Positions 3,498 to 54,475 of a DNA stretch of 64,000 nt are shown here, in pieces. The DNA is taken from positions 5,895 to 69,894 of the forward strand of contig JACPES010000005.1 of NCBI GenBank assembly GCA_016183365.1. The letters run 5' to 3'. The DNA comes from Candidatus Collierbacteria bacterium. GTDB lineage: Bacteria; Patescibacteriota; Microgenomatia; UBA1400; JACPES01. Position 1 is the stretch's first letter; each line of letters starts with the position of its first letter. The position numbers and the translations under genes are program-made. The notes below the pieces were generated by a model. It made no database searches, was not told the origin of the DNA, and saw nothing but the letters and a program-made list of their open reading frames with translations.

Positions 3498-4220
3498 GTG
3501 GCATATCACTGTATGGACAATCAAATGCTTATCAAGCGATATCTTAATTCTCTCCGCCAATCCGGCAAATCCATTCTGACTCTCTCTGCTTATGCCACTG
3601 ACTTGAAGCAATTCTCTACTGTAATTTCTCCAACCCCCCTTACCCTTTTAACCAATCTTAAACTAACAACCAACAACCAACAACTTATTTCCCGCTTCTC
3701 CCCCAACTCCCGAGTCCGCAAGCTTACCACCATCCGCGAATTTTTAAAATGGTGTTTTATCAAAGGCTACTTAAAAAAAGATTTATCAGGGATTATAAAA
3801 CCCGTCCGCCGGATAACTATCTCCCCGGCTAAATCATTATCAACTTCCCAATTTTACCGTCTCCGTTCCAAAGCCGATGTTAAAGAAAGGCTGCTATTAG
3901 AACTAATTATTAACATAAATCTAAAACTATCAGCCATCGTCAAATTAAAAATGAAAGATATTACCCCTCTTTTCCTCCGTTCCTGCGGAGCAGGATCCCG
4001 CTTTGTGGGACAATCCTTGGACTACTATCTGGCCCAATTCCCCCGCGGTCCCAAAAGCTATTTATTGGCCAACAAATTCAACCGGCCGATGTCAGTTAGA
4101 ACCTTAAGCTCTATATTAAAAAATTTATCCCGCCGAGCCGGGGTCAAACACGGTACTTTTAGGAATCTGCGGGCCATATATTTTGCCAGTCAAGAAAGGA
4201 CCCGATCATATAAACGATGA
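3498..4220 (+). CDS. tyrosine recombinase/phage-integrase-family protein, divergent XerC/D-like
   Basis: N-terminal SAM-like motif (IKRYLNSLRQSGKSILTLSAYATDLKQF) and a C-terminal region alignable to the integrase catalytic domain, but the active-site R and the terminal Y-motif are not clearly conserved. Confidence 0.45.
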   Translation: MAYHCMDNQMLIKRYLNSLRQSGKSILTLSAYATDLKQFSTVISPTPLTLLTNLKLTTNNQQLISRFSPNSRVRKLTTIREFLKWCFIKGYLKKDLSGIIKPVRRITISPAKSLSTSQFYRLRSKADVKERLLLELIININLKLSAIVKLKMKDITPLFLRSCGAGSRFVGQSLDYYLAQFPRGPKSYLLANKFNRPMSVRTLSSILKNLSRRAGVKHGTFRNLRAIYFASQERTRSYKR

Positions 4221-9593: not shown

Positions 9594-11210
9594 ATGAAAA
9601 CCAAGTGGGCAATTCTAATATTAATTTTGGCCGGACTTATTGCTTACGGCAATACTTTAAAAAATGGCTTATTTTGGGACGATGATGAGTTTATTACCAG
9701 AAACGCCTACATCCGGTCTTTCCGCTATCTGCCGCAATGGTTCAGCCAACCGCTGACCGCCGGGGCCGGAGTAAATTCCAACTACTACTGGCCGCTACTG
9801 CAATTATCTTTTGCGGTTGATTACAAACTTTGGGGGTTGTGGCCGGCGGGGTATCACTTTGAGAATTTGCTATGGCATACGGCCGCAGCAATTCTTTTGT
9901 ATTTTTTCCTAAAAGAATTGCTGCAGAAATTCAGTATTCAGCATTCAGTATTCAGTATTGCATCGCTAATCGCTTTCGCGACATCTTTGCTCTGGCTCGT
10001 TCACCCTGCCCAAGTCGAAGCCGTGGCGTACGCTAACTCCCGCGGCGATTCGATGGCGACAGTATTCATTTTGCTGTCGCTGATTTTGTGGATGAGAAAC
10101 AAAATTAAAGGCAGCGCCATAGCTTTCATCTTGGCTTTACTCTCTAAAGAATTCGCCATCATTACCCCGGGACTTATGACCCTGATAAGTTTCGTAAACT
10201 TAACAAATGAGAAGTTTACTGTAAAGGAGACTCCTCGATGTACGTCAAGGAGTCTCCTTATTATGTTTATAATTGCCACTATTTATATTATCCTCCGCCT
10301 CACCGTCCTTAACTTTCAAAACACCCTCAATTTCTACGGTATTGATACGGCCAAAGTTGACCGCAGCCAGCCATTGGCCGTCTACGCCACTTCCCTGCCG
10401 ACGCGGCTAATGACATTTCTAAAAGTTTTACCTATCTATGGGAGCATCCTTATCTGGCCGAATGATTTGCATATGGAGAGAACGGTAAAAATTGCAACAA
10501 TTGCCGCAGATAAAACGGTAATTATAGTCGCGACAGTTATAATTGTTACATTGTTAAATTGCTACATTGCTATCAAAAGAAAAAGGCTTCTCCTGCCTTT
10601 CGCGGTCGGTTGGTTTATGATTTCCATTCTCACCGTCTCCGGCCTGATCCCCATCTCCCAAATCCTGGCGGAACATTTTCTTTATCTACCCAGTATTGGT
10701 TTCTTCCTGCTGGTATCTTGGCTTATCGTTTCTACTATCACCACAACCATAAAATCTAAAAAATGGCAGAGAATCTCATTGCTCATTGTTTTCTGCTCAT
10801 TGCTCATTCCTCTATTGTTCAAAACCATCCGCCAAAACCGGATTTGGCGCGACCCGATTACTTTTTACGAGTACACTCTGTCGCGAACCGTCCCGACAGT
10901 TAGGATTTATAACAATCTGGCTATGGCCTATGCCGATGCCGGAAAACATCAAAAAGCAATTAACAATTACCAATTAGCAATTGAGCTTGGCGACGTTTAC
11001 CCCAATCCTCATTACAACATGGGAAATACGTTAATAGAAATGGGCAAAATCGAAGAAGCGGAAAGAGAGTACAAACGAGCTTTAGAGATTGATCCAAATT
11101 TCCACTATGCTACGTTGAAGTTGGGGCAGATATATATTGATCGGGGAAAAATTGAGGATGCCAAAAAACTGGTCTGTCCGTTCTTCCCCGCCCAACTCCT
11201 ATGCTTGTAA
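9594..11210 (+). CDS. TMTC-like membrane protein: GT-C glycosyltransferase domain (DUF1736-like) with C-terminal TPR repeats
   Basis: N-terminal LFWDDDEF motif and multiple TM helices. C-terminal TPR-like repeats (YNNLAMAYADAGKHQKAINNYQLAIEL..., YNMGNTLIEMGKIEEAEREYKRALEIDPN). Confidence 0.6.
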   Translation: MKTKWAILILILAGLIAYGNTLKNGLFWDDDEFITRNAYIRSFRYLPQWFSQPLTAGAGVNSNYYWPLLQLSFAVDYKLWGLWPAGYHFENLLWHTAAAILLYFFLKELLQKFSIQHSVFSIASLIAFATSLLWLVHPAQVEAVAYANSRGDSMATVFILLSLILWMRNKIKGSAIAFILALLSKEFAIITPGLMTLISFVNLTNEKFTVKETPRCTSRSLLIMFIIATIYIILRLTVLNFQNTLNFYGIDTAKVDRSQPLAVYATSLPTRLMTFLKVLPIYGSILIWPNDLHMERTVKIATIAADKTVIIVATVIIVTLLNCYIAIKRKRLLLPFAVGWFMISILTVSGLIPISQILAEHFLYLPSIGFFLLVSWLIVSTITTTIKSKKWQRISLLIVFCSLLIPLLFKTIRQNRIWRDPITFYEYTLSRTVPTVRIYNNLAMAYADAGKHQKAINNYQLAIELGDVYPNPHYNMGNTLIEMGKIEEAEREYKRALEIDPNFHYATLKLGQIYIDRGKIEDAKKLVCPFFPAQLLCL

Positions 11211-11297: not shown

Positions 11298-11825
11298 CTA
11301 TCGATGTCCCAGTGTGTAAAGTGTGTCTAAGTGATTAAATCCAATATTCTGCGGTAGTTTTTTGAAGAATTTAATCTCGGCTGTGTCATCGGCAGGCTTG
11401 GAAGGCCAGGCCTTTCCCGGAAAGGCCTGGCCTTTTTGATCTGGTTTGATGGTGCATCGATATACTAAGTCGACTACGTGACCGCGCGGATCACCGGTTA
11501 GATCGTCAAATGCTTCGGCCAACTTCACATTCTCAACTTTTATCCCCAATTCTTCCTTTGCCACCCGCTTAACGCAATTCATTAACGCTTCGCCTTTCAA
11601 AACAAAACTCCCCGGCAAATGCCAGTAGCCGGCAAACGGCAGCCTTTTGCGTTTGGTCAGCAATACTGCTTTGCTGTTAAGTTTCGCAAACTTCACATTA
11701 GCGGAAGTTTGCGAAACTTCTATATCTTGCTCAATCAGGAGATTCACGGCCACCCGCGGCGCGTATTTAAAACTTCTAAGAAACGTTTGAAAGGGAAGTT
11801 TCTTGGGATTCATATCAATAATCAA
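11298..11825 (-). CDS. NUDIX hydrolase
   Basis: Nudix box GEALMNCVKRVAKEELG (Gx5Ex7REUxEExGU). Carries two in-frame palindromic repeat insertions. Confidence 0.7.
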   Translation of the reverse strand: MIIDMNPKKLPFQTFLRSFKYAPRVAVNLLIEQDIEVSQTSANVKFAKLNSKAVLLTKRKRLPFAGYWHLPGSFVLKGEALMNCVKRVAKEELGIKVENVKLAEAFDDLTGDPRGHVVDLVYRCTIKPDQKGQAFPGKAWPSKPADDTAEIKFFKKLPQNIGFNHLDTLYTLGHR

Positions 11826-13245: not shown

Positions 13246-13461
13246 GGGAATAATCTATCATTTTCCGCCTTCGCTTGCCATTCGCCTTTAGCAGAACTAT
13301 CCGTTCACGGCTCCTCACTGACGCTTCCCGCTCGGCTTTTCAGTACTATTCGTACACGCCTCGTGGAGCGCGTCTTGTGTGGGGCAGGCATGGCGCGCTA
13401 TCCGGCGGATTTGTTGCTCCTGCTGATTTTTCTTCCAGAAAAATCAGGGATCAACGAAAAT

Positions 13462-13614: not shown

Positions 13615-16170
13615 TTATAACGAACATTTTGAGTATCCACAAGAGTAACAAGTGCTGCACCCACTCTCGGAAGTCATTGCCGCTCCGCATTCCGGACAAT
13701 GGCCGTCGGCCAAATCCTCGGTGATCCGCCGTCTTTCAACCTGATATGCCCTTTGGGACAACGGCGTAATCTTCATCTGACTTTGCATCAGGCGTTGAGA
13801 TTGTTGATTGTTTTTCTCATCTTTCACATCCGCGGCAGTTTTTAATATTTGATTTTCTCTTGATCCGTCGCGATAGACGGTGATGCCTTTGCATCCAAGT
13901 TTCCAAGCGAGTAAATAAGCTTTTTCTACGTCTTTGACTGTGGCGGCACGGGAAAAATTAATGGTCTTGCTGACAGCGTTGTCAGTATATTTTTGAAACG
14001 CGGCCTGCATTTTAACGTGCCAGTCGGGAGAGATTTGGCGGGCGGTGCGGAAGATAGAAGATAAAATAGTCGAATGGTTAAGAGTGTTAAGAGTGTTAGG
14101 ATTGTTATCTACCCGATAACCATCTTTACCATCTCCACCATCTTGCCATCTTTCTATCTCTTTCTTCGCTTTTTCATAATACTTATTCGTATACCTCAAC
14201 CCTTCTTTCTCCACCACGTTTTTTGTATATTCCAAAGCAAAGTATGGTTCTATCCCCGATGAACAACCGGCAATCATGGAGATCGTCCCTGTCGGGGCGA
14301 TAGTTGTTATCGCCACGTTACGCACTTTTCGTCTGCGGCCAAACGGATTCTTGACGCTATTGAAATACGACTGTTTCCAGAGGGGGAATTCCGCCTTTTC
14401 TTTGGATAACTTCTCGCTCTCGTCCCAACTGATTTGCTGAATAAATTTCATGATCGATTCAGCTAATTTTATTCCTTCATCGCTGTCATAGCTTACGCCT
14501 AATTTAACCAACATATCCGCCCAGCCCATCACCCCAAGACCAATCCGCCGGAGTTTATGTGCCATATCGGCAATCTGTGGAATGGGATAGGTTGAGGCAT
14601 CTATGCCGTCGTCAAGAAAGCGGACCGCGGTGCGGATAACCTCTTCAAGACGGGACCGGTTAATATTGTCCAGAACACTCTGAAAACTCTGAAAGCCAGA
14701 CTGTCGGATAATCGGAGAATCGGAATGCCAGATTTTCTGGCTTTCCGGACCCCCGAGTTTTCCGAGTTTTCCGGAATCTTCCCAGAATGGTTTAATCACA
14801 AACTTCGCCAGATTTATGCTACCAAGGTTGCAAACGTCAAAAGGAAACAGAGGCTGTTCACCACATACATTTGTCGCATCTATCCGCCATTTTTTGATTA
14901 GAGGGTTATATTTATTGATAGTATCCAGATAAATCATCCCCGGGTCTCCGGTTAAGTGGGCTAAATTGATCATCTCATTCCATAGCCTCCGGGCCGAAAT
15001 TTTTTGGACCGTTGAGTCGTCGCGAGGATTAACCAATCCCCAGTCGGAATTTTTTTCTACCGCACTCATGAATCTATCAAAAGCGCCGACAGAAATATTG
15101 AAATTGCTAATTTCTCCGTCAACGGATTTGGCGCGGATAAATTCAAAAATATCCGGATGGTCAACGTTTAGGATCCCCATATTGGCGCCGCGGTGTTCGC
15201 CGCCCTGCATCACAATTTGGGTTTCGGCGTCAAACGCTTTCATAAAATTAATCGGACCGGAAGATAAGCCTCCGGAACGGACCGTATCGCCGCGGGGACG
15301 CAAATGAGAAAAATTAAAACCGGTTCCGCCGCCCATTTGATGGATCAGCGCCGCCCATTTGACGGCGTCGAAAATCTTCTCGATTGAATCCTCAACCGGT
15401 AAAACAAAACAATTGGCCAAAGATCCGTTCTGCTTATTTCCTGCCCCCCGGAAATAACACCCGGCCGGAACAAATTCAAAAAAGGTCATAATTTCCAGGT
15501 ACTTGTCCCACCAGTTATGTCTGGAAAGGCCAGGCCTTTTCAAAAAAGGCCTGGCCTTTTTTGATATCTTTTGTTCTACTTCGGCTTTCTCTGTTACAAC
15601 CACAGCGTCTGCGACGCGCCTCATTGCCTCCATGGGTGTTTCGATCACATTCCCCTCTTTATCTTTCCACAAATATCGTTTGGCCATGGCGGCATAGGCG
15701 TTATCCGACATACCAAGGCGAGAAGTGTCTGATAATTGAGAAGTACCAGATACTTCTCGTTGGGCTGCGCGCCGGTTCCGATAAAGAATGTAGGCCTGGG
15801 CCGCATCTTGGTGTCCGGCGGCCAGCAACACCTGTTCGACGATATCCTGAATTTCCTCGACTGTCCACTGATTATGACCGTTGGAACGAATCAGGGTATC
15901 CTCGACGATTTTGGCGAAGCGCTCCGCCTCTTTCCACAACGAAGATTGTTTGTCGGCTTTTTGTCGGGGAACTTCAGTCTCGGCGGCCCGACGGGCAATT
16001 TCGTCAACTCCGGTGATTTGGGAGAATTTTTTTCTTACTTGGGAAACCGCCCACAGCGACTGCCAAGCTGCCATGGTAATTTTGCCGCGGTCGTACTTTT
16101 GTTTCCGGCCGTCGCGCTTGAGGATGGTGTAAATTGGCCTATTGGTTTCTCCGGGTTTTTTATTTGACAT
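13615..16170 (-). CDS. nrdJ: class II (adenosylcobalamin-dependent) ribonucleotide reductase with N-terminal ATP-cone
   Basis: ATP-cone start IYTILKRDGRKQKYDRGKI; RNR core motifs (SLANCFVLP, ATNVCGEQ); C-terminal zinc ribbon CPECGAAMTSESGCSTCYSCGYSKC. Confidence 0.85.
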   Translation of the reverse strand: MSNKKPGETNRPIYTILKRDGRKQKYDRGKITMAAWQSLWAVSQVRKKFSQITGVDEIARRAAETEVPRQKADKQSSLWKEAERFAKIVEDTLIRSNGHNQWTVEEIQDIVEQVLLAAGHQDAAQAYILYRNRRAAQREVSGTSQLSDTSRLGMSDNAYAAMAKRYLWKDKEGNVIETPMEAMRRVADAVVVTEKAEVEQKISKKARPFLKRPGLSRHNWWDKYLEIMTFFEFVPAGCYFRGAGNKQNGSLANCFVLPVEDSIEKIFDAVKWAALIHQMGGGTGFNFSHLRPRGDTVRSGGLSSGPINFMKAFDAETQIVMQGGEHRGANMGILNVDHPDIFEFIRAKSVDGEISNFNISVGAFDRFMSAVEKNSDWGLVNPRDDSTVQKISARRLWNEMINLAHLTGDPGMIYLDTINKYNPLIKKWRIDATNVCGEQPLFPFDVCNLGSINLAKFVIKPFWEDSGKLGKLGGPESQKIWHSDSPIIRQSGFQSFQSVLDNINRSRLEEVIRTAVRFLDDGIDASTYPIPQIADMAHKLRRIGLGVMGWADMLVKLGVSYDSDEGIKLAESIMKFIQQISWDESEKLSKEKAEFPLWKQSYFNSVKNPFGRRRKVRNVAITTIAPTGTISMIAGCSSGIEPYFALEYTKNVVEKEGLRYTNKYYEKAKKEIERWQDGGDGKDGYRVDNNPNTLNTLNHSTILSSIFRTARQISPDWHVKMQAAFQKYTDNAVSKTINFSRAATVKDVEKAYLLAWKLGCKGITVYRDGSRENQILKTAADVKDEKNNQQSQRLMQSQMKITPLSQRAYQVERRRITEDLADGHCPECGAAMTSESGCSTCYSCGYSKCSL
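14671..14790. repeat. ~120-bp palindromic TIR element, in-frame within nrdJ-A
   Basis: CAGAACACTCTGAAAACTC...TTTCCGAGTTTTCCGGAA; same family as the copies in nrdJ-B, nrdJ-C, the two PBP genes and the 60530..62266 membrane-protein gene. Confidence 0.75.
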
Positions 16171-16198
16171 TATCTAGATAGAGCATATAATAAATTTA

Positions 16199-16945
16199 TT
16201 AACTCGTTTGGGATGGACGCTTGCGTCGGTTCCGACGGGTTTTTTCTTGCCAAAATCTTGTCTTGATCTGTTTCCATTTGATCACTCTTTCGGAAACAAT
16301 TTTAGTTCTAATTATTTGATAGAAAACGTTATCCTTTCCTGTCTGCGCCCATAACACGCTCCCGGCCACCATATCAGCAACATTAACCAGCGGTTCCGTT
16401 TGACTATCAACATGAACCGGCGATAACGGCTCGTCCAATAGACTAGTTAATACTTGATTAAATTTGTCTTGATCTATGGTTCTTTGAAAATGGCGGTCGA
16501 GAACGACGTGTTTAATCTGATGTTGATAGTATAAAAGACAATCTTCAAGCAGCAACCAGCAAAGAAGGGCAAAATTCTCCGGAGAATCGGTTATGCTTTG
16601 ATTTTGTTTTTCAACGATTAAAACAAAAATCTCTACGTCTTGAGCAGCCAATTTTTCCAGAAATTTTTTCTTAGTTCTGTCGCCGGCTCGATAAAACTTG
16701 ATTTCCGGCGGATTACTCTTGGCGTAATGTTTCCTGATAATTTTAGTCATGGATTTAAGTCGCTGGGGTGTTTGAGTTGATATGGCAGCTACAACCACAG
16801 CCGGATCCCGGGGATCGGGTAAAGTCCCGGATTCATCCAGATAAACAGTTCTGCCTACTCGCCTGTATTCAACCGCGGTGGGAAGCCGAGGAAATTTCCG
16901 CCCGTCGCGCTTGAGGATGATGGAAATTAACTTTTGGGATTTCAT
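16199..16945 (-). CDS. DUF3800-like protein whose first ~20 codons duplicate the nrdJ ATP-cone start
   Basis: YLDESG motif near the N-terminus (DUF3800 hallmark, recalled from memory). The N-terminus ISIILKRDGRKF and ~35 bp of DNA are near-identical to the nrdJ-A 5' end. Confidence 0.4.
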   Translation of the reverse strand: MKSQKLISIILKRDGRKFPRLPTAVEYRRVGRTVYLDESGTLPDPRDPAVVVAAISTQTPQRLKSMTKIIRKHYAKSNPPEIKFYRAGDRTKKKFLEKLAAQDVEIFVLIVEKQNQSITDSPENFALLCWLLLEDCLLYYQHQIKHVVLDRHFQRTIDQDKFNQVLTSLLDEPLSPVHVDSQTEPLVNVADMVAGSVLWAQTGKDNVFYQIIRTKIVSERVIKWKQIKTRFWQEKTRRNRRKRPSQTS

Positions 16946-17238
16946 TTGGTATATTGATTTATATTATGCCAGCTGGAATTAATGGATCTGAAGAAGATCA
17001 GGGAATATCGCGTCAAGAAACAGACCAGCCCGAAACATCCGAATCGGCAAGAACGTCGTTCCTAACATACATGGCATTTGGGATGCTGGCAATAAATGGG
17101 GCAATTGAAGTCGCCAATGGAATAGCCATGGATGACGGATCGAAAATGTTCTACGGAGGTGTTGACATATTAATTGCTGCTTTGGCATATTTTGCTACTC
17201 CGCATAGATACCGACGTGTTTAGTAGGTGTATCTTTTT

Positions 17239-19302
17239 TTAGACGCTGCATTTTGACCAACCGCAGCTATGGCAAGTGACACAACCATTTTCGGCAATTA
17301 CCGCAGCTCCACACTCCGGACAGACGGCGGCGGGACCGGAGCCGGGACGCAAAGGCAAATGTTGAATGGCAGAATTTTCATTCGTCATTCGTAATTGGTC
17401 ATTCGTCATTGTATCCTTAGCAAGATTCAAAACCTGATCTTTTTTTGAGCCGTCTCTATAAATAGTAATCCCCTTGCAGCCGAGTTTCCAGGCCAGAATG
17501 TAGGCTTTTTCTACATCTTCAACAGTAGTATTATGGGGGAAGTTAATGGTTTTGCTGATTGAGTTATCAAAATGTTTCTGCCAGGCGGCCTGAATCTTAA
17601 CGTGCCACGATGGAGAAATCTCATGGGTGGTAACAAATATCTTATAAAACCAGCCGGGCAAACCTTCGATGGATTTTAATCCGTATTCCGCGACGTGTTT
17701 CAGAACACTCGGAAAACTCGGAGTTTCAGATAAATCAGAAAGTCGGAGAATCGGAAAATCAGAACTTCTGATCTTCTGATTTTCTGACTTTCTGACATTC
17801 CGGCTTTCCGAGTTTTCAGAGTTTTCCGAAATGACTCTCTTTAGTTCTTCTTCAAACACCGGATCGACCATATATATTTCCTTCGTCGGCCTATTTTTTC
17901 TATCGTCTTCAAAGAATGTTCGTCTTTTTGTGACCAACGAAAAAATCGGCTCTATCCCCGAAGTAGTGTCGGCGAGCATCGCCGTAGTCCCAGTGGGGGC
18001 AATCATGGTAGTAGCGCAGTTTCGCATCGGATGCTTGTCAAAATAAATACTCCTGTCCCAGTTGCCGAAGTTGCCGCGGACTTTGGCCAGTTTCATACTC
18101 TCATTTTGGGCAGTTTCCTGGATGAACTTTGCCAATTTTTCCGAAAGCTCCTCCGCTTGACTAGAGTTGTACGGAATACCTAATTTAACCAACATATGGG
18201 AAAATCCCATCACGCCTAATCCAATGCGGCGGTTGCCGTTTTTGACCATCTGCTCAATTTCGGGAATAGCATAGGTATTAACTTCAATCATGTCGTCGAG
18301 AAACCGGACCCCGAGACGGACGCTCTTTTCTAAGTCTTCCCAGTCAACTCCATTCATTGTTTCCTGTTTCTTGCTTCTTGCTTCTTTTATATGATTCTGC
18401 AAGCAAATACTTGTCAAATTGCAACTCTCGTAGGGCAAAAGTCCGATTTCGCCGCAGGGATTAGTCGCTTCTATCCGTCCAATTTGGGGAGTGGGGTTGT
18501 CGCGGTTAAAAGTATCCAAAAACATCAAACCCGGATCGCCGGTTTGATGGGCGTGGTCAACGATCATTTTGAATAATTTCCGGGCTTTTATCTTTCTCAC
18601 CGGCTCCCCGGTTCTGGGGTTAATTAAATTCCACATCTTATCCGCCTGAACCGCTTTCATAAATTCGTCGGTTACTCCAACGGAAATATTAAAGTTCTTG
18701 ATAGTGCCATCCTCGTCTTTAAGGCGAATAAAGTCTTCAATGTCGGGATGGTCGGCGTTTAAAATCCCGATGTTGGCGCCTTGGCGTTTGGCGCCCTGAA
18801 GAATTTTTGACAGGGCGGCGGAATAGGCGGCCAGAAAGTCCACCGGACCGGAGGCGGCGTTGGGGACATTTTTGACTTTGTCGCCGCGGGGACGGATGCG
18901 GGAAAAATTAAAGCCGGTGCCGCCGTTATTTTTATGGACGACGGCAGCGTCACCCAAGGTTTTGAAAATCGACTGAATGTTGTCTTCGACCGGAAGAACG
19001 AAACAGCTGCTCAATTGGCCGGTGCCGCCGGGGTTACCGGCCTCAAACATGGCCTTGCCGGCGCATACGAATTTGAAATTCACCATCCGGTCGTAAAAGG
19101 CGACGGCAATCTCGGCAACTTTCCCGTTTCCGCCATTCCAATTGACTTCGGCTTTAGCCATATGTCTGGCGACCCGCCACAGCATCTCTCCCGGAGTTTC
19201 GATGACTTTTCCGGACATATCGGTGCGGAGATAACGCTTCTGGGAAATCTTTATGGCAGTTGGTGATAGTTTTGGTTCGATGATAGTCATATGTATAGAC
19301 AA
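17239..19302 (-). CDS. nrdJ: class II ribonucleotide reductase paralog (no ATP-cone)
   Basis: SSCFVLP, ATNPCGEIGL, C-terminal CPECGAAVIAENGCVTCHSCGWSKC. Carries a ~135-bp in-frame palindromic element. Confidence 0.85.
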   Translation of the reverse strand: MSIHMTIIEPKLSPTAIKISQKRYLRTDMSGKVIETPGEMLWRVARHMAKAEVNWNGGNGKVAEIAVAFYDRMVNFKFVCAGKAMFEAGNPGGTGQLSSCFVLPVEDNIQSIFKTLGDAAVVHKNNGGTGFNFSRIRPRGDKVKNVPNAASGPVDFLAAYSAALSKILQGAKRQGANIGILNADHPDIEDFIRLKDEDGTIKNFNISVGVTDEFMKAVQADKMWNLINPRTGEPVRKIKARKLFKMIVDHAHQTGDPGLMFLDTFNRDNPTPQIGRIEATNPCGEIGLLPYESCNLTSICLQNHIKEARSKKQETMNGVDWEDLEKSVRLGVRFLDDMIEVNTYAIPEIEQMVKNGNRRIGLGVMGFSHMLVKLGIPYNSSQAEELSEKLAKFIQETAQNESMKLAKVRGNFGNWDRSIYFDKHPMRNCATTMIAPTGTTAMLADTTSGIEPIFSLVTKRRTFFEDDRKNRPTKEIYMVDPVFEEELKRVISENSENSESRNVRKSENQKIRSSDFPILRLSDLSETPSFPSVLKHVAEYGLKSIEGLPGWFYKIFVTTHEISPSWHVKIQAAWQKHFDNSISKTINFPHNTTVEDVEKAYILAWKLGCKGITIYRDGSKKDQVLNLAKDTMTNDQLRMTNENSAIQHLPLRPGSGPAAVCPECGAAVIAENGCVTCHSCGWSKCSV
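17701..17835. repeat. ~135-bp palindromic TIR element, in-frame within nrdJ-B
   Basis: CAGAACACTCGGAAAACTCGGAG...TTTCCGAGTTTTCAGAGTTTTCCGAA; translated as ENSENSESRNVRKSENQKIRSSDFPILRLSDLSETPSFPSVL. Confidence 0.8.
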
Positions 19303-19332
19303 ATTTTAAATTGTAAATTAACTCTCTTGTCC

Positions 19333-21405
19333 TCATACCGAGCATTTACTCCATCCGCATTCCTGACAAGTTGCGCATCCATCCATCAACGTCAGTTCTC
19401 CCCTGCATTCCGGACACACTTCGTCAGGATTTCCTTTAACCGTTAACCTTTGACCTTTGACCTTCCCCACATTGAGCACTTGCTCTCTCCGGCAGCCGTC
19501 GCGATAAACCGTAATTCCTTTACATCCGGTTTCGAAAGCTAATAAATAAGCGTTTTTAATATCGTCGACTGTGGCCGAATTGGGCAAATTAATAGTTTTT
19601 GATACCGCCGCATCTGTATATTTTTGCCATGCGGCTTGCATTTTAATATGCCATCTGTAGGGAATTTCCATGGAGACACGGAAGATATCTCTTACTTCTT
19701 GCGGAATTTCTTTAATATTTTGGCAACTGCCGGACACAGAGACTCTCTCCAGAACACTCGGAAAACTTGGAACATCAGATAAATCAGAAGATCGGAGTTT
19801 CAGAGAACCAGAATTTCTGGTCGTCTGATTGTCTGATTTTCTGATTTTCCGGCTTTCAGAGTTTTCAGAGTTTTCTGAAATTACACCAACTGCTTTTGAA
19901 AATTCTTCGTTAACTTCTAGCAAACTCGTCTTCCCCAAATCTAAAATATTTTCCCTTCTGTACGCCAAGGCAAACAACGGTTCTATTCCACTGGAACAAC
20001 CGGCGATTATGGAAATAGTCCCGGTCGGGGCGACGGTGTTGACCGTTGAATTACGCATATGAGTGAAACCTTGCTTCTGCCAAACGCTATCTTCGAAAGC
20101 CGGGAAAGAACCACGACTTCTAGCCAGTTCCACCGAGGCGTCGCGGGCAGTATCATGGATAAATTTAGCGGTTTTTTTCGCTAGTTTCAACGCCGCTTCC
20201 GAGTCGTAACGAACCCCCAGTTTAATCAACATGTCCGCCCAGCCCATGACGCCGACGCCGATTTTTCTGGTGGTCAGGGCCATTTTTTTTAATTGGGGAA
20301 TCGGATAGTCGCAGAGGTCGATAACGTTGTCCTGAAAGTGAACCCCGAGACGGACGACCTCTTCTAATCGTTTCCAGTTGATTCTTTCCAGAACACTCGG
20401 AAAACTCTGAGAACCAGAGAAATCGGAATATCGGAGGATCGGAGAATCAGACGATCCGGCCTTCTGACTTTCTGATTTTCTGATATTCCGGCTTTCCGAG
20501 TATTCCGAGTTTTCTGAACTTACAAATCTTCCCAGGTTTATATTCCCCAAGTTGCATGACTCATACGGTAATAGGGCTTGTTCGCCACACGGGTTAGTTG
20601 CTTGATATATCCCTAATTTTGGCGTCGGACAATATTTATTCATGACATCTAAAAACACTAATCCCGGGTCGCCGACTTTCCAGGCCTGGGTGGCGATTAA
20701 ATTCCATAACTCCATCACGTCGATATCTTTTTCGGTGGCGCCGTCGTTGGGGTGAAATAAATGAATAGTCCCCTTTTTGGCTTTGACCTTTTCCATAAAT
20801 TCGTCTGTAGCCCCGACGCTGACGTTAAAATGGTAGAGCGTGGACGGATCTTCTTTGGACATAATAAATTCAACGATGTCCGGGTGATCAACCTTCAATA
20901 CTCCCATCAGGGCGGGGCGGCGGGCGCTGGCCTCGGCGATGGTGGCGGCGGAATAATTAAATAACCGCAGGAAAGAAACGGCGCCGGAACTGATGCCGCC
21001 GGTTGATTCCACCAAAGAACCCCGCGGCCTAAGATTTGTCAGCGGGATTCCAATCCCGCCGCCGGTCCGTAAAATCAGGGCCGCGTTGCGCAGTTGATCA
21101 TAAATATCTTCCAAGGAATCGGATAAAGGCAAAACATAGCAAGCCGAAAATTGTTTATGCTTGCGGCCGGCGTTAAGGAGGACCGAGCCGGAAAGATATT
21201 CCAAATTCGACATGGCCCGATAAAAATCATCGGCGACTTTTTTTATCTCCTGATCCGCTTTATCTCCCTTTACTCTTAGATATTTTTTGTCAGCCGACGC
21301 GATTAAGTTAGCTACCCGTCGGAACATCTGATCAGGGATTTCTTTTGGCAAAAGATAGCCGCGTTTTTTCAAAACTACCAAAGCGTTATCGGATAAATTT
21401 GTCAT
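19333..21405 (-). CDS. nrdJ: class II ribonucleotide reductase paralog (no ATP-cone)
   Basis: SACYVLP, ATNPCGEQAL, C-terminal CPECRGELTLMDGCATCQECGWSKC. Carries two in-frame palindromic elements. Confidence 0.85.
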   Translation of the reverse strand: MTNLSDNALVVLKKRGYLLPKEIPDQMFRRVANLIASADKKYLRVKGDKADQEIKKVADDFYRAMSNLEYLSGSVLLNAGRKHKQFSACYVLPLSDSLEDIYDQLRNAALILRTGGGIGIPLTNLRPRGSLVESTGGISSGAVSFLRLFNYSAATIAEASARRPALMGVLKVDHPDIVEFIMSKEDPSTLYHFNVSVGATDEFMEKVKAKKGTIHLFHPNDGATEKDIDVMELWNLIATQAWKVGDPGLVFLDVMNKYCPTPKLGIYQATNPCGEQALLPYESCNLGNINLGRFVSSENSEYSESRNIRKSESQKAGSSDSPILRYSDFSGSQSFPSVLERINWKRLEEVVRLGVHFQDNVIDLCDYPIPQLKKMALTTRKIGVGVMGWADMLIKLGVRYDSEAALKLAKKTAKFIHDTARDASVELARSRGSFPAFEDSVWQKQGFTHMRNSTVNTVAPTGTISIIAGCSSGIEPLFALAYRRENILDLGKTSLLEVNEEFSKAVGVISENSENSESRKIRKSDNQTTRNSGSLKLRSSDLSDVPSFPSVLERVSVSGSCQNIKEIPQEVRDIFRVSMEIPYRWHIKMQAAWQKYTDAAVSKTINLPNSATVDDIKNAYLLAFETGCKGITVYRDGCRREQVLNVGKVKGQRLTVKGNPDEVCPECRGELTLMDGCATCQECGWSKCSV
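19751..19880. repeat. palindromic TIR element copy 1 in nrdJ-C
   Basis: CCAGAACACTCGGAAAACTTGG...TTTCAGAGTTTTCAGAGTTTTCTGAA. Confidence 0.8.
20391..20520. repeat. palindromic TIR element copy 2 in nrdJ-C
   Basis: CCAGAACACTCGGAAAACTCTGAG...TTTCCGAGTATTCCGAGTTTTCTGAA. Confidence 0.8.
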
Positions 21406-21414
21406 ATTTTCTGT

Positions 21415-21545
21415 TATCGGATTTCAGTTTTCTGTTTTCGGTTTTCTGTTTTCAGGTTGACCGGTTTTCTGTTTGCCAGTTCGAAACCGATAAACTGAAG
21501 ACTGACTAACTGCAAACTGATAGCTGACAACCGAGAACTGATAAC
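21415..21545. repeat. degenerate intergenic copy of the same palindromic element (5' leader of nrdJ-C)
   Basis: tcagttttctgttttcggttttctgttttcagg ... gaaaccgataaactgaagactga. It has GTTTTCTG / CAGAAAAC-type dyad symmetry. Confidence 0.5.
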
Positions 21546-21744: not shown

Positions 21745-22015
21745 CTAAAGCTGTGCTGCTATATCAATGATTTTAATTAGTACGGACGGATCTGACGGCA
21801 AACAGGCAGGATTCTCCGACGTGTGAAGTTTACGAAACTTCACAATTGCTAATTTCTTGTCCGCAACCTTTCTGACTAATTTTTCATCGGCAGAAACCAA
21901 TATGGCTTTAGCGGCTTTGGCCAAAGTCTGGCGGGAACTATCGTATGCCGACAACTGATATTTTTGGACTAAAGTCAAACATGTTTTATGTTCGTCGGCT
22001 ATCGAGCAGAAAATC
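21745..22015 (-). pseudogene. truncated PIN-domain (VapC) paralog fragment carrying a hairpin-repeat insertion
   Basis: Protein and DNA (aaagtcaaacat..ttcgtcggctatcga) are similar to the C-terminal third of the intact VapC at 23398..23832. It lacks the N-terminal catalytic region and contains a GTGAAGTTTACGAAACTTCAC insert. Confidence 0.45.
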
Positions 22016-27510: not shown

Positions 27511-27860
27511 GCGTGGACAGGATTTGTTTAAACGTTTCAACCTCTTTCGAAGTGTGGTAATTTCCTGAAATAGTTATTTGATTCTCAAGAGTGAATTGAA
27601 ACCTATAGCGGACAATTTCCATTTTATCAGACCCGTCTCGATATTCATATACGCCCTTAATATTGGTTTCATAATTCTTGCCCAGTATTTTAACCTGCAC
27701 TTTCCCTGTCTCTTGACATTTGCTATTTGCACAAACTGATCCTCCAGCTGTTGAAAAAACCAGATCAGTCCCAATGAACAGAGTTGGCTTATCGTAGTCA
27801 TCAATCGAAAATTTCGATGGAAATATTCTTACCGAATACTCTCTGTAAGAGGGCAGGATT

Positions 27861-27900
27861 AATTTAATATCCAGCGACGATCGTCGCTGGATATTAAATT
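27861..27900. terminator. perfect 40-bp palindrome between convergent genes (probable bidirectional terminator)
   Basis: AATTTAATATCCAGCGACGA|TCGTCGCTGGATATTAAATT followed by ATTTTAAA. Confidence 0.55.
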
Positions 27901-28029
27901 ATTTTAAACACCAGTCAATTTATTATTCTCAAATTTTCCAGACTTCTATCATTTTATTTCATTCAGTCTCAACCTTCCATATCCAATCTACTCTCACTCA
28001 TAATGAAAACTTTTATTCTACAAGCCTAT

Positions 28030-33829: not shown

Positions 33830-36355
33830 ATGGCGAAGACAAAACCAAGGAAGAAGGTAGAAAGTAGAAGAAAGAATGATAAGAATAAATCACTATTATT
33901 GTGGCAAAAATTTAAAAAATTTGCCTTTACTTTTGAATTGACACCGGAGAATATCCGGAGATCGTGGACTCGAAAAGGGCTAAGGGCCAAGGGCCAAGGG
34001 CCAAGGGCCAAAACTCGCCGCCGATTTCTTATTTACTCATTAGTATTTATTAGTTTATTCGTAATTATTAGTATTTATTTATTACGGGATATTCCCTCTC
34101 CAACCAAACTCGCTTCCGGCAACTTTCCGGTTTCGACTCAAATTTTCGACCGCAACGGCCAACTGTTGTACGAAATTTACGCCGACCAGAACCGGACGCC
34201 GATTAAACTTAAGGATCTGCCGCCGTTTGTCTTGCAGGCGACGATTGCGATTGAGGACAAGAATTTTTACCGGCATTTTGGGATTGATATTTTTGGAGTC
34301 GCCCGGGCGGCGGTGAAAACCCTGACCGGACAGCGGCTGGAGGGCGGATCGACGATTACCCAGCAATTGGTCAAAATGACGCTGTTGACGCCGGAGCGAA
34401 GTTTGAGCCGGAAAATTCGGGAGGCGGCGCTGGCGGTAGCGACGGAAGTTTTATATTCTAAAGATCAAATATTGGAGATGTATTTGAACCACGCGCCTTA
34501 CGGCGGAACGGCTTATGGAATCGAGCAGGCAGCCAAAAGATATTTTGGCAAAAGCGCCAAGGATTTGAGTTTGCCGGAGGCAGCCCTTCTGGCAGGATTG
34601 CCGCAGGCGCCATCAGCGTATTCGCCATTCGGGTCGCGGCCGGAGAACGCCAAACAACGGCAAAAAGATGTGTTGCGGCGGATGAAAGAAGATAGATATA
34701 TCACTTCCCAGGAAGAGAGGGAAACGGAAGAGGCGGTTTTGGAATATTCTACTGCGAATATTCCGATTCGGGCGCCACATTTTGTGTTATGGATAAAGGA
34801 TTTATTGATTGAAAAATTCGGCCAAAAAACAGTAGAGGGTGGAGGATTAAGTGTGACAACAACGCTGGACTTGGCGATTCAAGAAATGGCTCAAGCCAGC
34901 GTGTCAGCCGAGGTAAAAAAACTAAAAAGTTTGCGGGTGGGCAACGGAGCGGCGTTGGTCACCAATCCGGGGACCGGAGAAATTTTAGCGATGGTGGGGT
35001 CAAAAGATTATTTTGATACGGAAAACGACGGCAATGTCAATGTGACAATTCGGCCGCGCCAACCGGGATCCTCCATTAAGCCCGTTATGTACGCTGGCGG
35101 TTTTTCGACCGGAAAACTTACTCCCTCCACTATGTTGATTGATGCGCCGACCTGTTTCAGAGTTCTCAACCAACCGGATTATTGTCCCCAAAATTATGAC
35201 GGTCAGTCCCATGGTCCGGTTCAAATCAGGTTTGCTCTGGGCAATTCTTACAATATTCCGGCGGTAAAATCCCTGGCATATATCGGCCTGGAGGATATGA
35301 TCGCGACGGCGTCGGCAATGGGAATCTCGACTTTTACCGATCCCTCCCGCTATGGTTTGTCGTTAACCTTGGGCGGCGGAGAAGTTACTATGTCCGATAT
35401 GGCCACGGCTTTTGGAACCCTGGCAAATAACGGGGTAAAAGTGCCGCTAAACCCGTTTTTGAAGATAGAAAATTATAGAGGAGAGGTTTTATACCAACGG
35501 ACTACGGAGGAACGACTAAATGATCTTCGGAACACTCAGAATACTCAGAAAGCCAGAGAATCAGACAATCAGAAATTCGGAGAATCAGAGTCTCTGGACT
35601 TCCGATCCTCAGATTCTCTGATAATCCGGTCCTCTGAGTTTTCCGAGTTTTCTGAAATCATCCAGGCTATTCCGGCAGAAGCAGCATACTTGGTCAGTCA
35701 TATTCTCCTGGACAATAACGCCCGGACCGCCGCATTTGGGCCGAGTTCGCAACTGGTAATACCGGGGCAAGTGGTTTCGGTAAAGACCGGAACTACCAAT
35801 GACCTTCGGGACAACTGGACTTTGGGGTACACCCCGGAACGGCTAGTGGCGGTATGGGTGGGAAATAATGATAATAAACCAATGAACCAAGCTCTGGTTT
35901 CTGGCATCACCGGGGCAGCGCCGATTTGGCACAACATCATGAGACAACTGCTATGGAGTCGAAGGCCTATTTGGCCGGAAAGACCGGAAGGGGTGGTCGG
36001 AAAAGATGTCTGCGTTCTGACCGGTCTCTTACCGACGCCAGGAAATTTATGCGATACTCGGCATGAATTTTTCTGGGATAAGTTCTTGCCCGCGAATAAT
36101 TATCCCCTCCAACGGGAGATCTGGATTCGCAAAGATACCGGGACGCCGATTGATCCCAATATTCCGCTGGACCAGCAAGGAGAGTTAGAATTGCAAAACC
36201 ATACGGTTATTTCCGACCCGCTGGTGCCGGAATTCTGTTTGGACTGCGCGTATCCGGTAATTCAGGAGTTAAATCCCGACGGATCGGTGAAAGAGGAGCG
36301 GATCAATTACCCCGGGTCGGTGATTAACACTACGTCATTGCGAGCCCCGCCGTAG
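33830..36355 (+). CDS. class A penicillin-binding protein (transglycosylase + transpeptidase)
   Basis: EDKNFYRHFGIDIFGVARA, GGSTITQQLVK (GT51); SIKP, SYN, KTGT transpeptidase motifs. Contains a ~135-bp in-frame repeat, and its stop codon lies inside a repeat. Confidence 0.85.
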   Translation: MAKTKPRKKVESRRKNDKNKSLLLWQKFKKFAFTFELTPENIRRSWTRKGLRAKGQGPRAKTRRRFLIYSLVFISLFVIISIYLLRDIPSPTKLASGNFPVSTQIFDRNGQLLYEIYADQNRTPIKLKDLPPFVLQATIAIEDKNFYRHFGIDIFGVARAAVKTLTGQRLEGGSTITQQLVKMTLLTPERSLSRKIREAALAVATEVLYSKDQILEMYLNHAPYGGTAYGIEQAAKRYFGKSAKDLSLPEAALLAGLPQAPSAYSPFGSRPENAKQRQKDVLRRMKEDRYITSQEERETEEAVLEYSTANIPIRAPHFVLWIKDLLIEKFGQKTVEGGGLSVTTTLDLAIQEMAQASVSAEVKKLKSLRVGNGAALVTNPGTGEILAMVGSKDYFDTENDGNVNVTIRPRQPGSSIKPVMYAGGFSTGKLTPSTMLIDAPTCFRVLNQPDYCPQNYDGQSHGPVQIRFALGNSYNIPAVKSLAYIGLEDMIATASAMGISTFTDPSRYGLSLTLGGGEVTMSDMATAFGTLANNGVKVPLNPFLKIENYRGEVLYQRTTEERLNDLRNTQNTQKARESDNQKFGESESLDFRSSDSLIIRSSEFSEFSEIIQAIPAEAAYLVSHILLDNNARTAAFGPSSQLVIPGQVVSVKTGTTNDLRDNWTLGYTPERLVAVWVGNNDNKPMNQALVSGITGAAPIWHNIMRQLLWSRRPIWPERPEGVVGKDVCVLTGLLPTPGNLCDTRHEFFWDKFLPANNYPLQREIWIRKDTGTPIDPNIPLDQQGELELQNHTVISDPLVPEFCLDCAYPVIQELNPDGSVKEERINYPGSVINTTSLRAPP
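35526..35662. repeat. palindromic TIR element in-frame within PBP gene 1
   Basis: GGAACACTCAGAATACTCAGAAAG...GAGTTTTCCGAGTTTTCTGAA; translated as RNTQNTQKARESDNQKFGESESLDFRSSDSLIIRSSEFSEFSE. Confidence 0.8.
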
Positions 36356-36788
36356 GCGGGGCGTGGCAATCTAAAGTCATTGCGAGCGACCGGAGGGAGC
36401 GCGGCAATCTAAAAATTTGATGCAAGAACAGTCCTTCTGTGTTTATTTGATGAGCAATCCCGGCAGAACGGTACTTTATACCGGTGTAACCCGAAACTTG
36501 ATAAAACGGGTATGGCAACATAAAGAGAAAGTCGCTGATGGTTTTACCAAGAAATACAATGTTACCGATATGGTCTATTACGAAATCCTTGATTCACCGA
36601 TTGAAGCAATCGAACGCGAAAAGCAAATTAAGAGTTGGTCGAGAAAAAGGAAAAATCGCTTGGTAGAAGCGGAAAATTCTTCATGGAAAGATTTATACGA
36701 TGAAATCGTATCATGGTGAGTAATGCAAGAGGGATGACGCTAAAGCGTCAGATTGCCACGCCCCGCCGGTAGCGGGGCTCGCAATGAC
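36344..36788. mobile_element. GIY-YIG gene cassette bounded by ~39-bp terminal inverted repeats
   Basis: Left GTCATTGCGAGCCCCGCCGTAGGCGGGGCGTGGCAATCT (36344-36382, plus a second partial tandem copy 36377-36410). Right AGATTGCCACGCCCCGCCGGTAGCGGGGCTCGCAATGAC (36750-36788) is its reverse complement. Confidence 0.65.
36417..36719 (+). CDS. GIY-YIG nuclease family protein (YhbQ/Slx1-like small form)
   Basis: FCVYLMSNPGRTVLYTGVTRNLIKRVWQHKE is a GIY-YIG motif; 100 aa. Confidence 0.7.
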   Translation: MMQEQSFCVYLMSNPGRTVLYTGVTRNLIKRVWQHKEKVADGFTKKYNVTDMVYYEILDSPIEAIEREKQIKSWSRKRKNRLVEAENSSWKDLYDEIVSW

Positions 36789-43004: not shown

Positions 43005-43239
43005 TATTTTTTACGTTTTTCCATCCGCTTTTCGACTTGGGGACACTGCCTATCACCGTTTGGGCTATCAATTTAAGATCGTTCCTTTCCACGTCTTCAA
43101 TCGCCATTCTCAGAACCGCAGCTCGTCGAAGATATTCGCTGAGACTTTCGTTCGATATGGTACTCCGCGTCTCTACCAACTTCTTTAACGCCGGTGACAA
43201 AGATATCTGGGTTCTGGTGGGGTAAATCGCCGTATTCAT
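42952..43239 (-). CDS. putative RHH-type antitoxin (VapB-like)
   Basis: 95-aa ORF upstream of, and overlapping, the PIN gene; SLSEYLRRAAVLRM is RHH-like. Confidence 0.45.
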   Translation of the reverse strand: MNTAIYPTRTQISLSPALKKLVETRSTISNESLSEYLRRAAVLRMAIEDVERNDLKLIAQTVIGSVPKSKSGWKNVKNIGEWQRKLRKDEDRHRP

Positions 43240-43354
43240 AATGATGTAATGTTAATACATCATTATATTGAAGTCAAGACACATTATTGGCGTTGTTTTA
43301 GTAAAATAAAACAAACTGCAATCGCTCTGATATTTCATCCCAATTAATCATTTT

Positions 43355-48533: not shown

Positions 48534-49277
48534 TCATTCGTATGTCATTTGCAGATTAGTATCGCTATCAACACATTCTAGCAACTTTTTGACTTTTTCC
48601 CAACTCACCTGTTCAAACTGTCGATAATAAATCCCTACCGTCCCCAAGTAGGGATCTTTATGAAGAATCACAACTTGATCCGCTACCTGTCGCAACATAT
48701 CCGCCGCTTCGGTTGAAGCCACCGGCAAACCAACGATTATTTGATAAGATCTAACCTTGCCGTACGGAAAGGTTAGATCTTTTTTGACTGATTTTTGGAT
48801 CCCTTTGAGCGCGGCCATCATCGAAATTCCCGTCGCCGCCCCGTCGTCAACTAAAACAATATTTCCCGATTTTGGCGGTCTGATGTTTTTGGTAATTCCG
48901 ATTTTTCTTATATATTCTGATATTTCAATCTTTTTGTCATCTATCTGCTGTTTTTGCCATTCTTTATCCAGCCGCCAGCGTCGCAATATCTCTTTATTCC
49001 ACCAAACTACAATATCCGGCCGCAAAGTTTGGGAAGTTTGCGAAACTTCCCATTTCGGAATCTCCGCCACCGCCCCGACAGCAAACTCCGGATTTCCCGG
49101 GGCGCCAACCTTTCTGACGATCAACGTTTCAAGCGGCGATTCCAAAATTCTGGCGACTTCAGCCGCCACCACGACTCCACCCCGAGCCAAGCCGAAAACT
49201 ATATCCGGACTAATTCCCCGCCGCTTTAACTCTTCCCCCAACAGTATGCCTGCCTGTGACCGCGAATCAAATACCAT
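48534..49277 (-). CDS. phosphoribosyltransferase-domain protein
   Basis: PRPP-binding VLVDDGAATG and GLARGGVVVAAEVA motifs. Contains an in-frame GGAAGTTTGCGAAACTTCC hairpin insert. Confidence 0.55.
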   Translation of the reverse strand: MVFDSRSQAGILLGEELKRRGISPDIVFGLARGGVVVAAEVARILESPLETLIVRKVGAPGNPEFAVGAVAEIPKWEVSQTSQTLRPDIVVWWNKEILRRWRLDKEWQKQQIDDKKIEISEYIRKIGITKNIRPPKSGNIVLVDDGAATGISMMAALKGIQKSVKKDLTFPYGKVRSYQIIVGLPVASTEAADMLRQVADQVVILHKDPYLGTVGIYYRQFEQVSWEKVKKLLECVDSDTNLQMTYE

Positions 49278-54366: not shown

Positions 54367-54432
54367 TTTGACTAATATATTTTGTTAACCAATGAGATAC
54401 AAACGTATTTTACTCTTCACCATCATAAAAAC

Positions 54433-54456: not shown

Positions 54457-54475
54457 TTTTTAGTAAATTAATAAA

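Follow-up and report, generated by a model that had tools for sequence, protein, structure and literature searches.

Sequence evidence for a family of short palindromes inserted in-frame in unrelated genes of a Candidatus Collierbacteria genome

A short DNA palindrome, GAAGTTT-NNN-AAACTTC, recurs inside unrelated genes in a stretch of 64,000 nucleotides from a Candidatus Collierbacteria genome (hereafter the window), and the sequence comparisons reported here support its interpretation as a repeated DNA element inserted in-frame into those genes. A search of the window for this pattern with at most one mismatch returned five matches (11678-11694, beginning TAAGTTT and carrying one mismatch, 11704-11720, 21825-21841, 49033-49049 and 61708-61724), as compared with 0.02 expected from 100 dinucleotide shuffles. 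This confirms the central claim of the initial annotation, made from the letters alone, that a palindrome is repeated inside unrelated genes. When two mismatches were allowed, two extra copies were recovered, a partner unit at 61735-61751 and a copy in a TPR membrane-protein gene at 10186-10202 (TAAGTTTCGTAAACTTA), giving a family of seven copies at five loci, or about one copy per 9 kb. A covariance model (R1) trained on 14 copies found the same seven in the window and no other match below E=0.1. The four sites listed in the initial annotation are real, while the fifth, at 10186, had been overlooked.

The window is 88% coding and carries housekeeping genes, including SUF genes, transketolase, three ribonucleotide reductase genes and superoxide dismutase. 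Two of its proteins, the NUDIX hydrolase and the phosphoribosyltransferase, match proteins of a Candidatus Collierbacteria metagenome-assembled genome (MAG; candidate phyla radiation, Microgenomates) with 100% identity. Related loci and contigs compared with the window are given L-numbers, L001 being its closest relative. The family consensus was TGKG-AAGTTT-CGY-AAACTT-CMCA, each unit being a palindrome of 17-23 bp. The K:M position of the outer stem covaried among copies (TGTG/CACA versus TGGG/CCCA). The stems had been described as perfect and 7 bp long; three of them are in fact 10 bp (TGTGAAGTTT/AAACTTCACA at 21822-21844 and 61705-61727; TGGGAAGTTT/AAACTTCCCA at 49030-49052), and two copies, that at 11678 and the second one at 61.7 kb, are imperfect. 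The copies and their host genes, with the strand given for the genes, are as follows.

9594-11210, forward strand: gene for a membrane protein with C-terminal TPR repeats; insert in a loop between transmembrane helices
10186-10219: copy in the TPR gene, overlooked earlier; unit at 10186-10202, TAAGTTT-CGT-AAACTTA, in frame 3, read SFVNL
11298-11825, reverse strand: gene for a NUDIX hydrolase (Pfam PF00293)
11678-11720: inverted doublet in the NUDIX gene, a 48-nt (16-codon) insertion
11678-11694: NUDIX unit A, TAAGTTT-CGC-AAACTTC; the mRNA reads VKFAKLN
11704-11720: NUDIX unit B, GAAGTTT-GCG-AAACTTC; the mRNA reads EVSQTS
21745-21978, reverse strand: degenerate PIN-like open reading frame (ORF) of 77 aa with the hairpin in its tail
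21822-21844: single unit, TGTGAAGTTT-ACG-AAACTTCACA, 10-bp stem, read VKFRKLH
48534-49277, reverse strand: gene for a phosphoribosyltransferase (Pfam PF00156 and orthologue alignment)
49021-49031: truncated partner remnant beside the phosphoribosyltransferase unit, CGCAAAGTTTG
49030-49052: unit in the phosphoribosyltransferase gene, TGGGAAGTTT-GCG-AAACTTCCCA; the mRNA reads WEVSQTS
60530-62266, forward strand: gene for a polytopic membrane protein, family unknown; insert in a hypervariable loop
61705-61751: inverted doublet; first unit (61705-61727) TGTGAAGTTT-CGC-AAACTTCACA, read VKFRKLH; spacer ATGATGA
61735-61751: degenerate partner in that doublet, AAAGTTT-GCG-AAACTGC, read EKFAKL

The two membrane-protein hosts are unrelated to each other. 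The NUDIX doublet, 11676-11722 in full, consists of TAAGTTTCGCAAACTTC, a 9-nt spacer ACATTAGCG and GAAGTTTGCGAAACTTC. In the TPR gene, the left arm of a decayed partner is GAGAAGTTTAC at 10209-10219; its right arm has been replaced by a palindrome at 10224-10259, and L001 carries the intact orthologous doublet (L001:11525/11550). This adjoining palindrome reads AAGGAGACTCCT-(12 nt)-AGGAGTCTCCTT, and L001 has CTTCGCGCACGCGAAG at its position. The phosphoribosyltransferase site (49021-49052) belongs to a 15-codon insert, IPKWEVSQTSQTLRPDI. The alignment of the PIN-like ORF with its sole homologue ends exactly where the hairpin starts. Further copies were found in other genes of relatives: a kinase-like ORF of L216, two loci in L007, and L288.

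Comparison with orthologues indicated that the copies are additions. Most of the 43 NUDIX orthologues read VNLLVVRDDGAILL / AVNLLVVRDDGAILLTKR with no insert, and in L007-L011 nothing occupies the loop. At this point, 48 additional nucleotides, or 16 codons comprising two units, are present in the window and L005; L006 and L292 have the second unit alone, L291 has the first unit alone, and L290 and L293 have a doublet with flipped loops, other outer stems and other spacers. Basal phosphoribosyltransferase orthologues read GAVAE-G-AVWWDE where the window has 15 more residues, and at the same point other lineages have peptides encoded by other palindromes. Both membrane-protein sites are hypervariable inter-helix loops, in which different lineages carry different, unrelated palindromes. 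The inserted residues are thus not common to the NUDIX, phosphoribosyltransferase or membrane-protein orthologues, and the Pfam domain match does not cover the motif, which is external to it or falls in a gap. In the AlphaFold model of the NUDIX protein, with a mean predicted local distance difference test score (pLDDT) of 84, the insert forms a loop (residues 37-49) between two strands, and mean pLDDT drops to 64 across residues 41-50. The occurrence of empty or differently filled loops in orthologues, together with the use of three reading frames, indicates that the copies are DNA-level insertions and not protein motifs. Judged from these alignments, they arose through insertion of extra codons rather than by substitution.

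The core 17-mer was read in three frames, as EVSQT(S), as KFRKL or KFAKL, and as SF(A/V)NF/L (SFVNL). Every peptide quoted in the initial annotation was correct, but the choice between EVSQTS and KF(R/A)KL had been attributed to orientation. It is the frame that decides, orientation exchanging only the loop codon (R/A, Q/E). The element is free of stops except in two frames, which give TAA (CGT loop, frame 1) and TGA in TGTGAAG, and these two frames are not used within ORFs. In L007, the TGA of TGTGAAG is the stop codon of an ATP-grasp gene. Six of the seven window copies lie within ORFs of at least 175 codons, which is no enrichment because coding density is 88%. That all copies are in-frame, as had been stated, held for the four ORF hosts; the copy in the tail of the degenerate PIN-like ORF permits no test. 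The in-frame placement is largely explained by coding density combined with selection against stops and frameshifts, and mirrors survival rather than targeting.

In the two NUDIX units, the window and L005 agree at all 13 third-codon positions, as compared with 48% gene-wide. Constraint therefore acts on nucleotides, and what is selected is, as far as this alignment tells, DNA or RNA and not the peptide. Peptides covering EVSQTSANVKFAKLN in proteome data would demonstrate translation of the insert. The suggestion that the hairpins act in mRNA stability or attenuation found no support, there being no T-run, Rfam match or position bias.

The inverted doublet appears to be the natural form of the element. 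A doublet comprises two inverted units 6-16 nt apart, about 40-48 nt overall, that fold into a single long hairpin. Doublets were found at 11678-11720 and 61705-61751 in the window, at L001:11525-11566, and in L005, L216, L290 and L293. The NUDIX doublet was predicted to form one 16-bp hairpin with a folding energy of -23.9 kcal/mol as RNA (z -7.1) and -17 as DNA; the values for the 61.7-kb doublet were -20.3 and -15.5 kcal/mol, respectively. Across the RNA and DNA folds of these two doublets, z ranged from -3.8 to -8.2, while single units folded at -10 to -12.5 kcal/mol. In all of the doublets, the paired units had complementary loops (CGC/GCG, CGT/ACG and ACG/CGT, plus an ACG/TGT doublet with a G.T pair), and the doublet therefore acts as one unit. 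At each of the phosphoribosyltransferase and TPR sites, one unit of a doublet has been truncated or overwritten. A rule that the CGY unit always comes first was dropped, as L216, L290, L293 and a GAAGGAT doublet have the reverse order.

The core was more conserved than its surroundings. In the NUDIX loop, AAGTTT/AAACTT was invariant at 132 of 132 nucleotides in 11 orthologous units from seven lineages, in genes that are only 59-77% identical (34-65% at third codon positions), and the loops, outer stems and spacers varied. The phosphoribosyltransferase genes of the window and L287 are 69% identical; their stems agree at 18 of 18 positions and their loops differ (CGC versus ACG), a difference that, on sequence grounds, is an in-situ loop inversion plus one change.

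Occupancy of the sites, on the other hand, was variable. The same NUDIX codon position is filled by GAAGGAT-GCG-ATCCTTC in L001 and by GAAGTAT-CTG-ATACTTC in L294, and these replacement families recur elsewhere, the GAAGGAT type at L001:3507 and the GAAGTAT type in the window:

15738-15758: probable sister-subfamily member, GAGAAGTA-CCAGA-TACTTCTC, of the type GAAG-TAT...ATA-CTTC; weak covariance-model match

This palindrome lies inside a ribonucleotide reductase gene and is one base off the palindrome of the L294 NUDIX loop. The replacement families share with the main family a GAAG...CTTC frame and differ in three co-varying inner pairs (TTT, GAT, TAT). Such turnover took other forms as well: in L007, a palindrome AAGGCCAGGCCTT... 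occupies a loop that holds family copies elsewhere, in L289 the doublet apex is replaced by another palindrome, and in the TPR gene of the window one unit arm has been overwritten, as described above. Hairpin occupancy was not congruent with a neighbour-joining tree of the NUDIX genes, an observation that is suggestive only, because bootstrap support was mostly weak. One sister pair in the tree, P0009 and P0010, had 100% bootstrap support; it is a recombinant mosaic whose hairpins differ. P0009 (about L006) and P0010 (L294) are identical over the 3' 115 codons of the NUDIX gene and differ throughout the 5' 45 codons, including the loop palindrome, a pattern that, from the alignment, indicates that lineages have recombined, the breakpoint lying immediately downstream of the hairpin.

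With the covariance model, nine copies were detected in the closest relatives, and about 370 kb of more distant Microgenomates yielded none; so far as these sequences go, the family is restricted to close relatives. A contig search with the doublet pattern gave at least one Collierbacteria locus (L216) among the matches listed, the others being from Oscillospiraceae, Saprospiraceae and Flavobacteriia.

The window contains other palindromes besides this family. A second family, AAGGCCAGGCCTTTC-CCG-GAAAGGCCTGGCCTT, with 13-16-bp stems, was found at 11402-11434 and 15525-15559, in a TPR-protein loop of L007 and at L001:10369-10397. The copy at 11402-11434 is unrelated to the GAAGTTT units and lies in-frame in the same NUDIX gene, where it is read KGQAFPGKAWP; no other segment of the AlphaFold model falls below a pLDDT of 50. 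The copy at 15525-15559 is in-frame in a ribonucleotide reductase gene, and that of L007 fills the loop which in the window has GAAGTTT units. A third family, CTGATTTTTC...GAAAAATCAG, with 10-11-bp stems, is present at 13423-13447 and 54955-54979; one copy is intergenic and the other is inside a short SufBD-core gene (54476-55054). Low-complexity repeats encoding SENSESRKIRKSD...SFPSVLER and LRGNVSDRGNLQDRH are in-frame in several genes (19333-21405, ribonucleotide reductase; 60530-62266, membrane protein), and such repeat DNA is also intergenic (21405-21530); orthologues have other variants or none. With these repeats, the genome has one more class of in-frame repeat insert.

Long perfect palindromes at 27860-27901, 43238-43266 and 54427-54460 (stems of 19, 11 and 15 bp; for example, TAATTTAATATCCAGCGAC-GATC-GTCGCTGGATATTAAATTA) are intergenic and have no relation to the coding families. 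An ORF for a small GIY-YIG nuclease at 36417-36719 (Pfam annotation on the identical locus L050) lies between GC-rich hairpins at 36344-36362 and 36760-36778, GCCCCGCC...GGCGGGGC; the arrangement may be a tiny mobile cassette, or simply two terminators. Inteins and an intron were seen as well. The ribonucleotide reductases of the relative at L001/L002:1-6821, compared with 13615-21405 in the window, have LAGLIDADG-domain inteins (1009+ and 1227 aa); in those of the window (851, 687 and 690 aa), Pfam reported no intein domain. A group I intron was matched by Rfam at 2053-2228 (66 bits), within 2033-2285 on the forward strand. Its flanks, GCGGGTGGGAGG...GGCTTAA and ...ACCCGCAACCA, look like a tRNA-Leu(UAA) gene interrupted in its anticodon loop, one half on either side; the gene is not called by ARAGORN. 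This intron and two tRNAs were the only matches of Rfam 15 in the window, no RNA family being matched by the hairpins at the gathering score.

A recombinase-like gene was seen near the hairpins in one place only. The 240-aa ORF at 3498-4220 (forward strand), between the DivIC and PMT_2 genes, had no Pfam match at 1e-6, and its syntenic counterpart in L002 (18998-19681) had a weak match to Phage_int_SAM_1; from this similarity the ORF may be a divergent Xer-like tyrosine recombinase.

Taken together, we consider it fairly probable that the units are a lineage-restricted family of mobile mini-palindromic insertion elements, one of several in this genome. New copies would arise by copy-and-paste, probably on single-stranded hairpin DNA, and would land repeatedly in or beside existing hairpins, single units being deletion or decay products, or else precursors. 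A copy would survive only if its length was a multiple of three bases, if it was not read in a stop-containing frame, and if it lay in a surface loop, a linker or the tail of a gene; its translation there would give 5-16 additional residues without meaning. The stems are probably kept perfect, and the loops flipped, by template switching at quasi-palindromes, a process that cannot disperse the core to many loci. Such a family would be actively mobile through a single-stranded DNA or hairpin mechanism, would depend on an enzyme that recognizes the AAGTTT/AAACTT stem, and would bring the host no benefit. Insertion by microhomology with a GAAG (Arg-Glu codons, CGN GAA G) already present in the empty NUDIX loop was considered; L290, L293 and L294 are compatible with it, the window, L005 and L291 are not, and it is put forward as an idea only.

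Several observations weigh against mobile elements. No transposase or HUH enzyme was found by Pfam among the approximately 55 ORFs of the window or in annotated relatives; the whole genome is perhaps 1 Mb, of which the window covers only about 64 kb. IS200/IS605-type Y1 HUH enzymes of the kind that mobilize repetitive extragenic palindromic (REP) sequences, the REP-associated tyrosine transposases (RAYTs), were likewise not found among the Pfam-scanned window ORFs or in the annotated flanks of relatives. An alignment of 14 copies with their flanks revealed no GTAG/CTAC or CGTC/GACG tag and no conserved flank. There was no direct repeat beside any copy that could represent a target-site duplication, the orthologues being too divergent for exact junctions. 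Mobility, including recent transposition, is something that we infer, because neither a mobilizing enzyme, a target duplication nor strain-level polymorphism was found and no near-identical genome pair differing by one insertion was among the genomes compared. Finally, an immobile selfish relic should decay, and the core is invariant despite the divergence of the genes around it. Continual re-insertion or overwriting from an active family is therefore called for, or else sequence-specific selection, which would favour a functional interpretation; the strict conservation of the core leaves room for a function in the host or for a trans-acting factor. There was no sign of phage origin: a phage BLAST search with the NUDIX region gave no match, and the 17-mer had single, chance-level matches only in viral sequences.

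A host-functional signal kept by selection, either a double-stranded DNA binding site (parS, matS or Noc-like) or an RNA hairpin affecting mRNA decay or ribosome pausing, would account for the invariance of the core at saturating synonymous divergence in seven lineages while loops, spacers and outer stems vary, for the density of copies and for the thermodynamic stability of the hairpins (z -3.4 to -7); their location in coding loops would then follow only from the near absence of intergenic space. We regard this as rather unlikely, since occupancy varies from site to site (empty, one unit, two units or another family), decayed or overwritten copies exist (10209-10219, 61735-61751), and the copies come as extra codons rather than substitutions. 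Moreover, this tiny genome has at least five other palindrome families that behave alike, more than could each have a dedicated binding protein, and the hairpins have no orientation bias with respect to transcription, no T-run and no Rfam match. A further possibility, which we hold to be unlikely, is that the hairpins are the substrate of an undescribed, sequence-specific hairpin-homing system of candidate phyla radiation bacteria whose trans-acting factor reads AAGTTT/AAACTT and re-installs or overwrites elements in protein loops. The GAAG...CTTC frame with its three co-varying inner pairs would then represent sister specificities (TTT, GAT and TAT), and core conservation, family replacement at the same codon and occupancy that departs from the gene tree would be jointly explained. 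If it existed, such a system could be domesticated, with chromosome-organization or recombination sites pushed into coding loops for lack of intergenic DNA.

Local mutation without mobility was also considered. Template-switch correction of quasi-palindromes and loop inversion of chloroplast-DNA hairpins are established processes, and template switching could build, perfect, extend, invert and duplicate hairpins, any similarity between loci being convergent. The loop inversion between orthologues with identical stems (CGC versus ACG), the outer stems that are locus-specific yet complementary, and the inverted doublets with complementary loops are all consistent with this. It is nonetheless an improbable source of the family, as it leaves unexplained the presence of the same 15-17-mer core at at least eight unrelated loci (0.02 expected), and maintains pairing rather than sequence, so that identity of the core across lineages is unaccounted for as well; probably it aids maintenance and loop flipping. 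That EVSQTS or KFxKL is a short linear motif gained by several proteins has in its favour the recurrence of these peptides, and is very improbable: one DNA sequence yields three unrelated peptides by frame, most orthologues lack the inserts, which lie in loops modelled with low confidence, and frame dependence together with the third-position identity between the window and L005 effectively refutes it. Palindromes can confuse assemblers, but we give next to no credence to an assembly or chimera artefact of metagenomic contigs, because identical or orthologous copies, with frames intact, occur in independent NCBI, JGI, ENA and Logan assemblies from different samples. This interpretation was ruled out, as were those of a terminator and of an uptake sequence.

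Among known systems, the closest in outcome are the Rickettsia palindromic elements (RPEs; Ogata et al., 2000), which, as summarized in PMC10969869 and PMC3733652, are palindromic families of about 100-150 bp placed in-frame in genes and encoding a conserved peptide of 30-50 aa. As in Rickettsia, several palindrome families coexist in a small, reduced genome, lie in-frame in unrelated housekeeping genes and are translated where the fold tolerates an insert, as in the NUDIX loop, while being absent from orthologues. The Collierbacteria unit is, in contrast, only 17-23 bp (about 45 bp as a doublet), and its 5-16 residues depend on frame. RPEs end in CGTC (PMC3733652), which the Collierbacteria units lack; there is no sequence relationship, the phyla differ, and in Collierbacteria the same protein loops are re-used by different families.

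REPs are short palindromic units (20-40 bp) whose doublets form hairpins (REPINs) and which are mobilized by RAYT transposases (PMC3116915, PMC3337134, PMC3733652). The Collierbacteria family resembles them in its short repeated unit (seven copies in 64 kb), its conserved family-specific stem, its lineage-restricted and vertically inherited families, and above all its inverted doublet folding into one long hairpin (PMC3116915), with singlets as apparent remnants. It differs in lacking the GTAG/CGTC tag (PMC3733652) and in its very short and variable doublet spacer (6-16 nt); no RAYT was found in the sequence examined. Some intragenic REPs have been reported (PMC3733652); whereas REPs are mostly extragenic, the Collierbacteria copies are overwhelmingly intragenic and translated (six of seven in the window). 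Coding palindromes and double-hairpin elements of organelles, in the mitochondria of Allomyces and other fungi, yeast GC clusters and Nematomorpha (PMC6649704, PMC4478555, PMC7218506), are likewise small hairpins that spread in gene-dense genomes, can sit in coding sequence with the frame preserved, and have no known transposase. They belong to eukaryotic organelles and to other sequence families, and the Nematomorpha repeats reach 284 bp.

Other systems are more distant. Quasi-palindrome template switching produces comparable perfect stems, flipped loops (CGC to GCG/ACG) and stem extension into flanks; as a process of maintenance and mutation it provides no dispersal and cannot make the same core at many loci. 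Miniature inverted-repeat transposable elements are 70-300 bp long with terminal inverted repeats of 15-30 bp and target-site duplications, unlike the 17-48-nt Collierbacteria element, which has no flanking repeats. In contrast to intrinsic terminators or attenuators, which are GC-rich hairpins at gene ends or in leaders with a T-run after them, the hairpins have AT-rich stems without a T-run and lie mid-ORF, one L007 copy overlapping a stop codon. DNA uptake sequences (USS/DUS) are family-wide motifs of about 10-12 nt that occur about once per kb and arise by substitution, as opposed to inserted codons about once per 9 kb.

Nested AAGTTT-NNN-AAACTT-(3-5 nt)-AAGTTT-N'N'N'-AAACTT palindromes with complementary loops were abundant, among the matches listed, in Saprospiraceae, Flavobacteriia and Oscillospiraceae. 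In Saprospiraceae MAGs (L250, L199, L203, L201, L186 and L238), they lie in ORFs of 550-1465 codons and are read KFRKLSKFPKL or SLLNFESLVNL; for example, a nested palindrome is just upstream of a conserved ILLVEDN segment, which, from its sequence, may be the start of a receiver domain. Those of Oscillospiraceae (L190 and many others) mostly lie outside long ORFs, between conserved flanks (cgctgcct...actgattt). These too are palindromes of palindromes with complementary loops, distinguished from the Collierbacteria doublets by AT-rich loops, a fixed 3-5-nt spacer and their occurrence in other phyla. The shared AAGTTT/AAACTT is a consequence of the search pattern, which demanded it, and is no evidence of common descent. 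In-frame mini-palindromes may nevertheless be more widespread than recognized.

To our knowledge, Rickettsia has so far provided the clear bacterial case of repeat DNA colonizing protein-coding sequence, and REPs and REPINs are regarded as extragenic. In the full-text literature searched, there was no description of such elements for the candidate phyla radiation. The inserts account for many of the peculiar lineage-specific insertions and interrupted Pfam matches that proteins of this group have, and phylogenomic analyses should mask them. They are also natural maps of insertion tolerance in proteins. Gene-dense genomes thus filter selfish or structural DNA into loops rather than excluding it, and the invariance of the stem at saturating divergence offers a handle for finding the factor that recognizes it. 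As the family lacks defining features of RPEs, of REPs/REPINs and of organellar elements, it belongs to none of them, yet works like them: the outcome seen in Rickettsia is reached in an unrelated, ultra-small genome with far smaller units, REPIN-like doublets and families that compete for the same loops.

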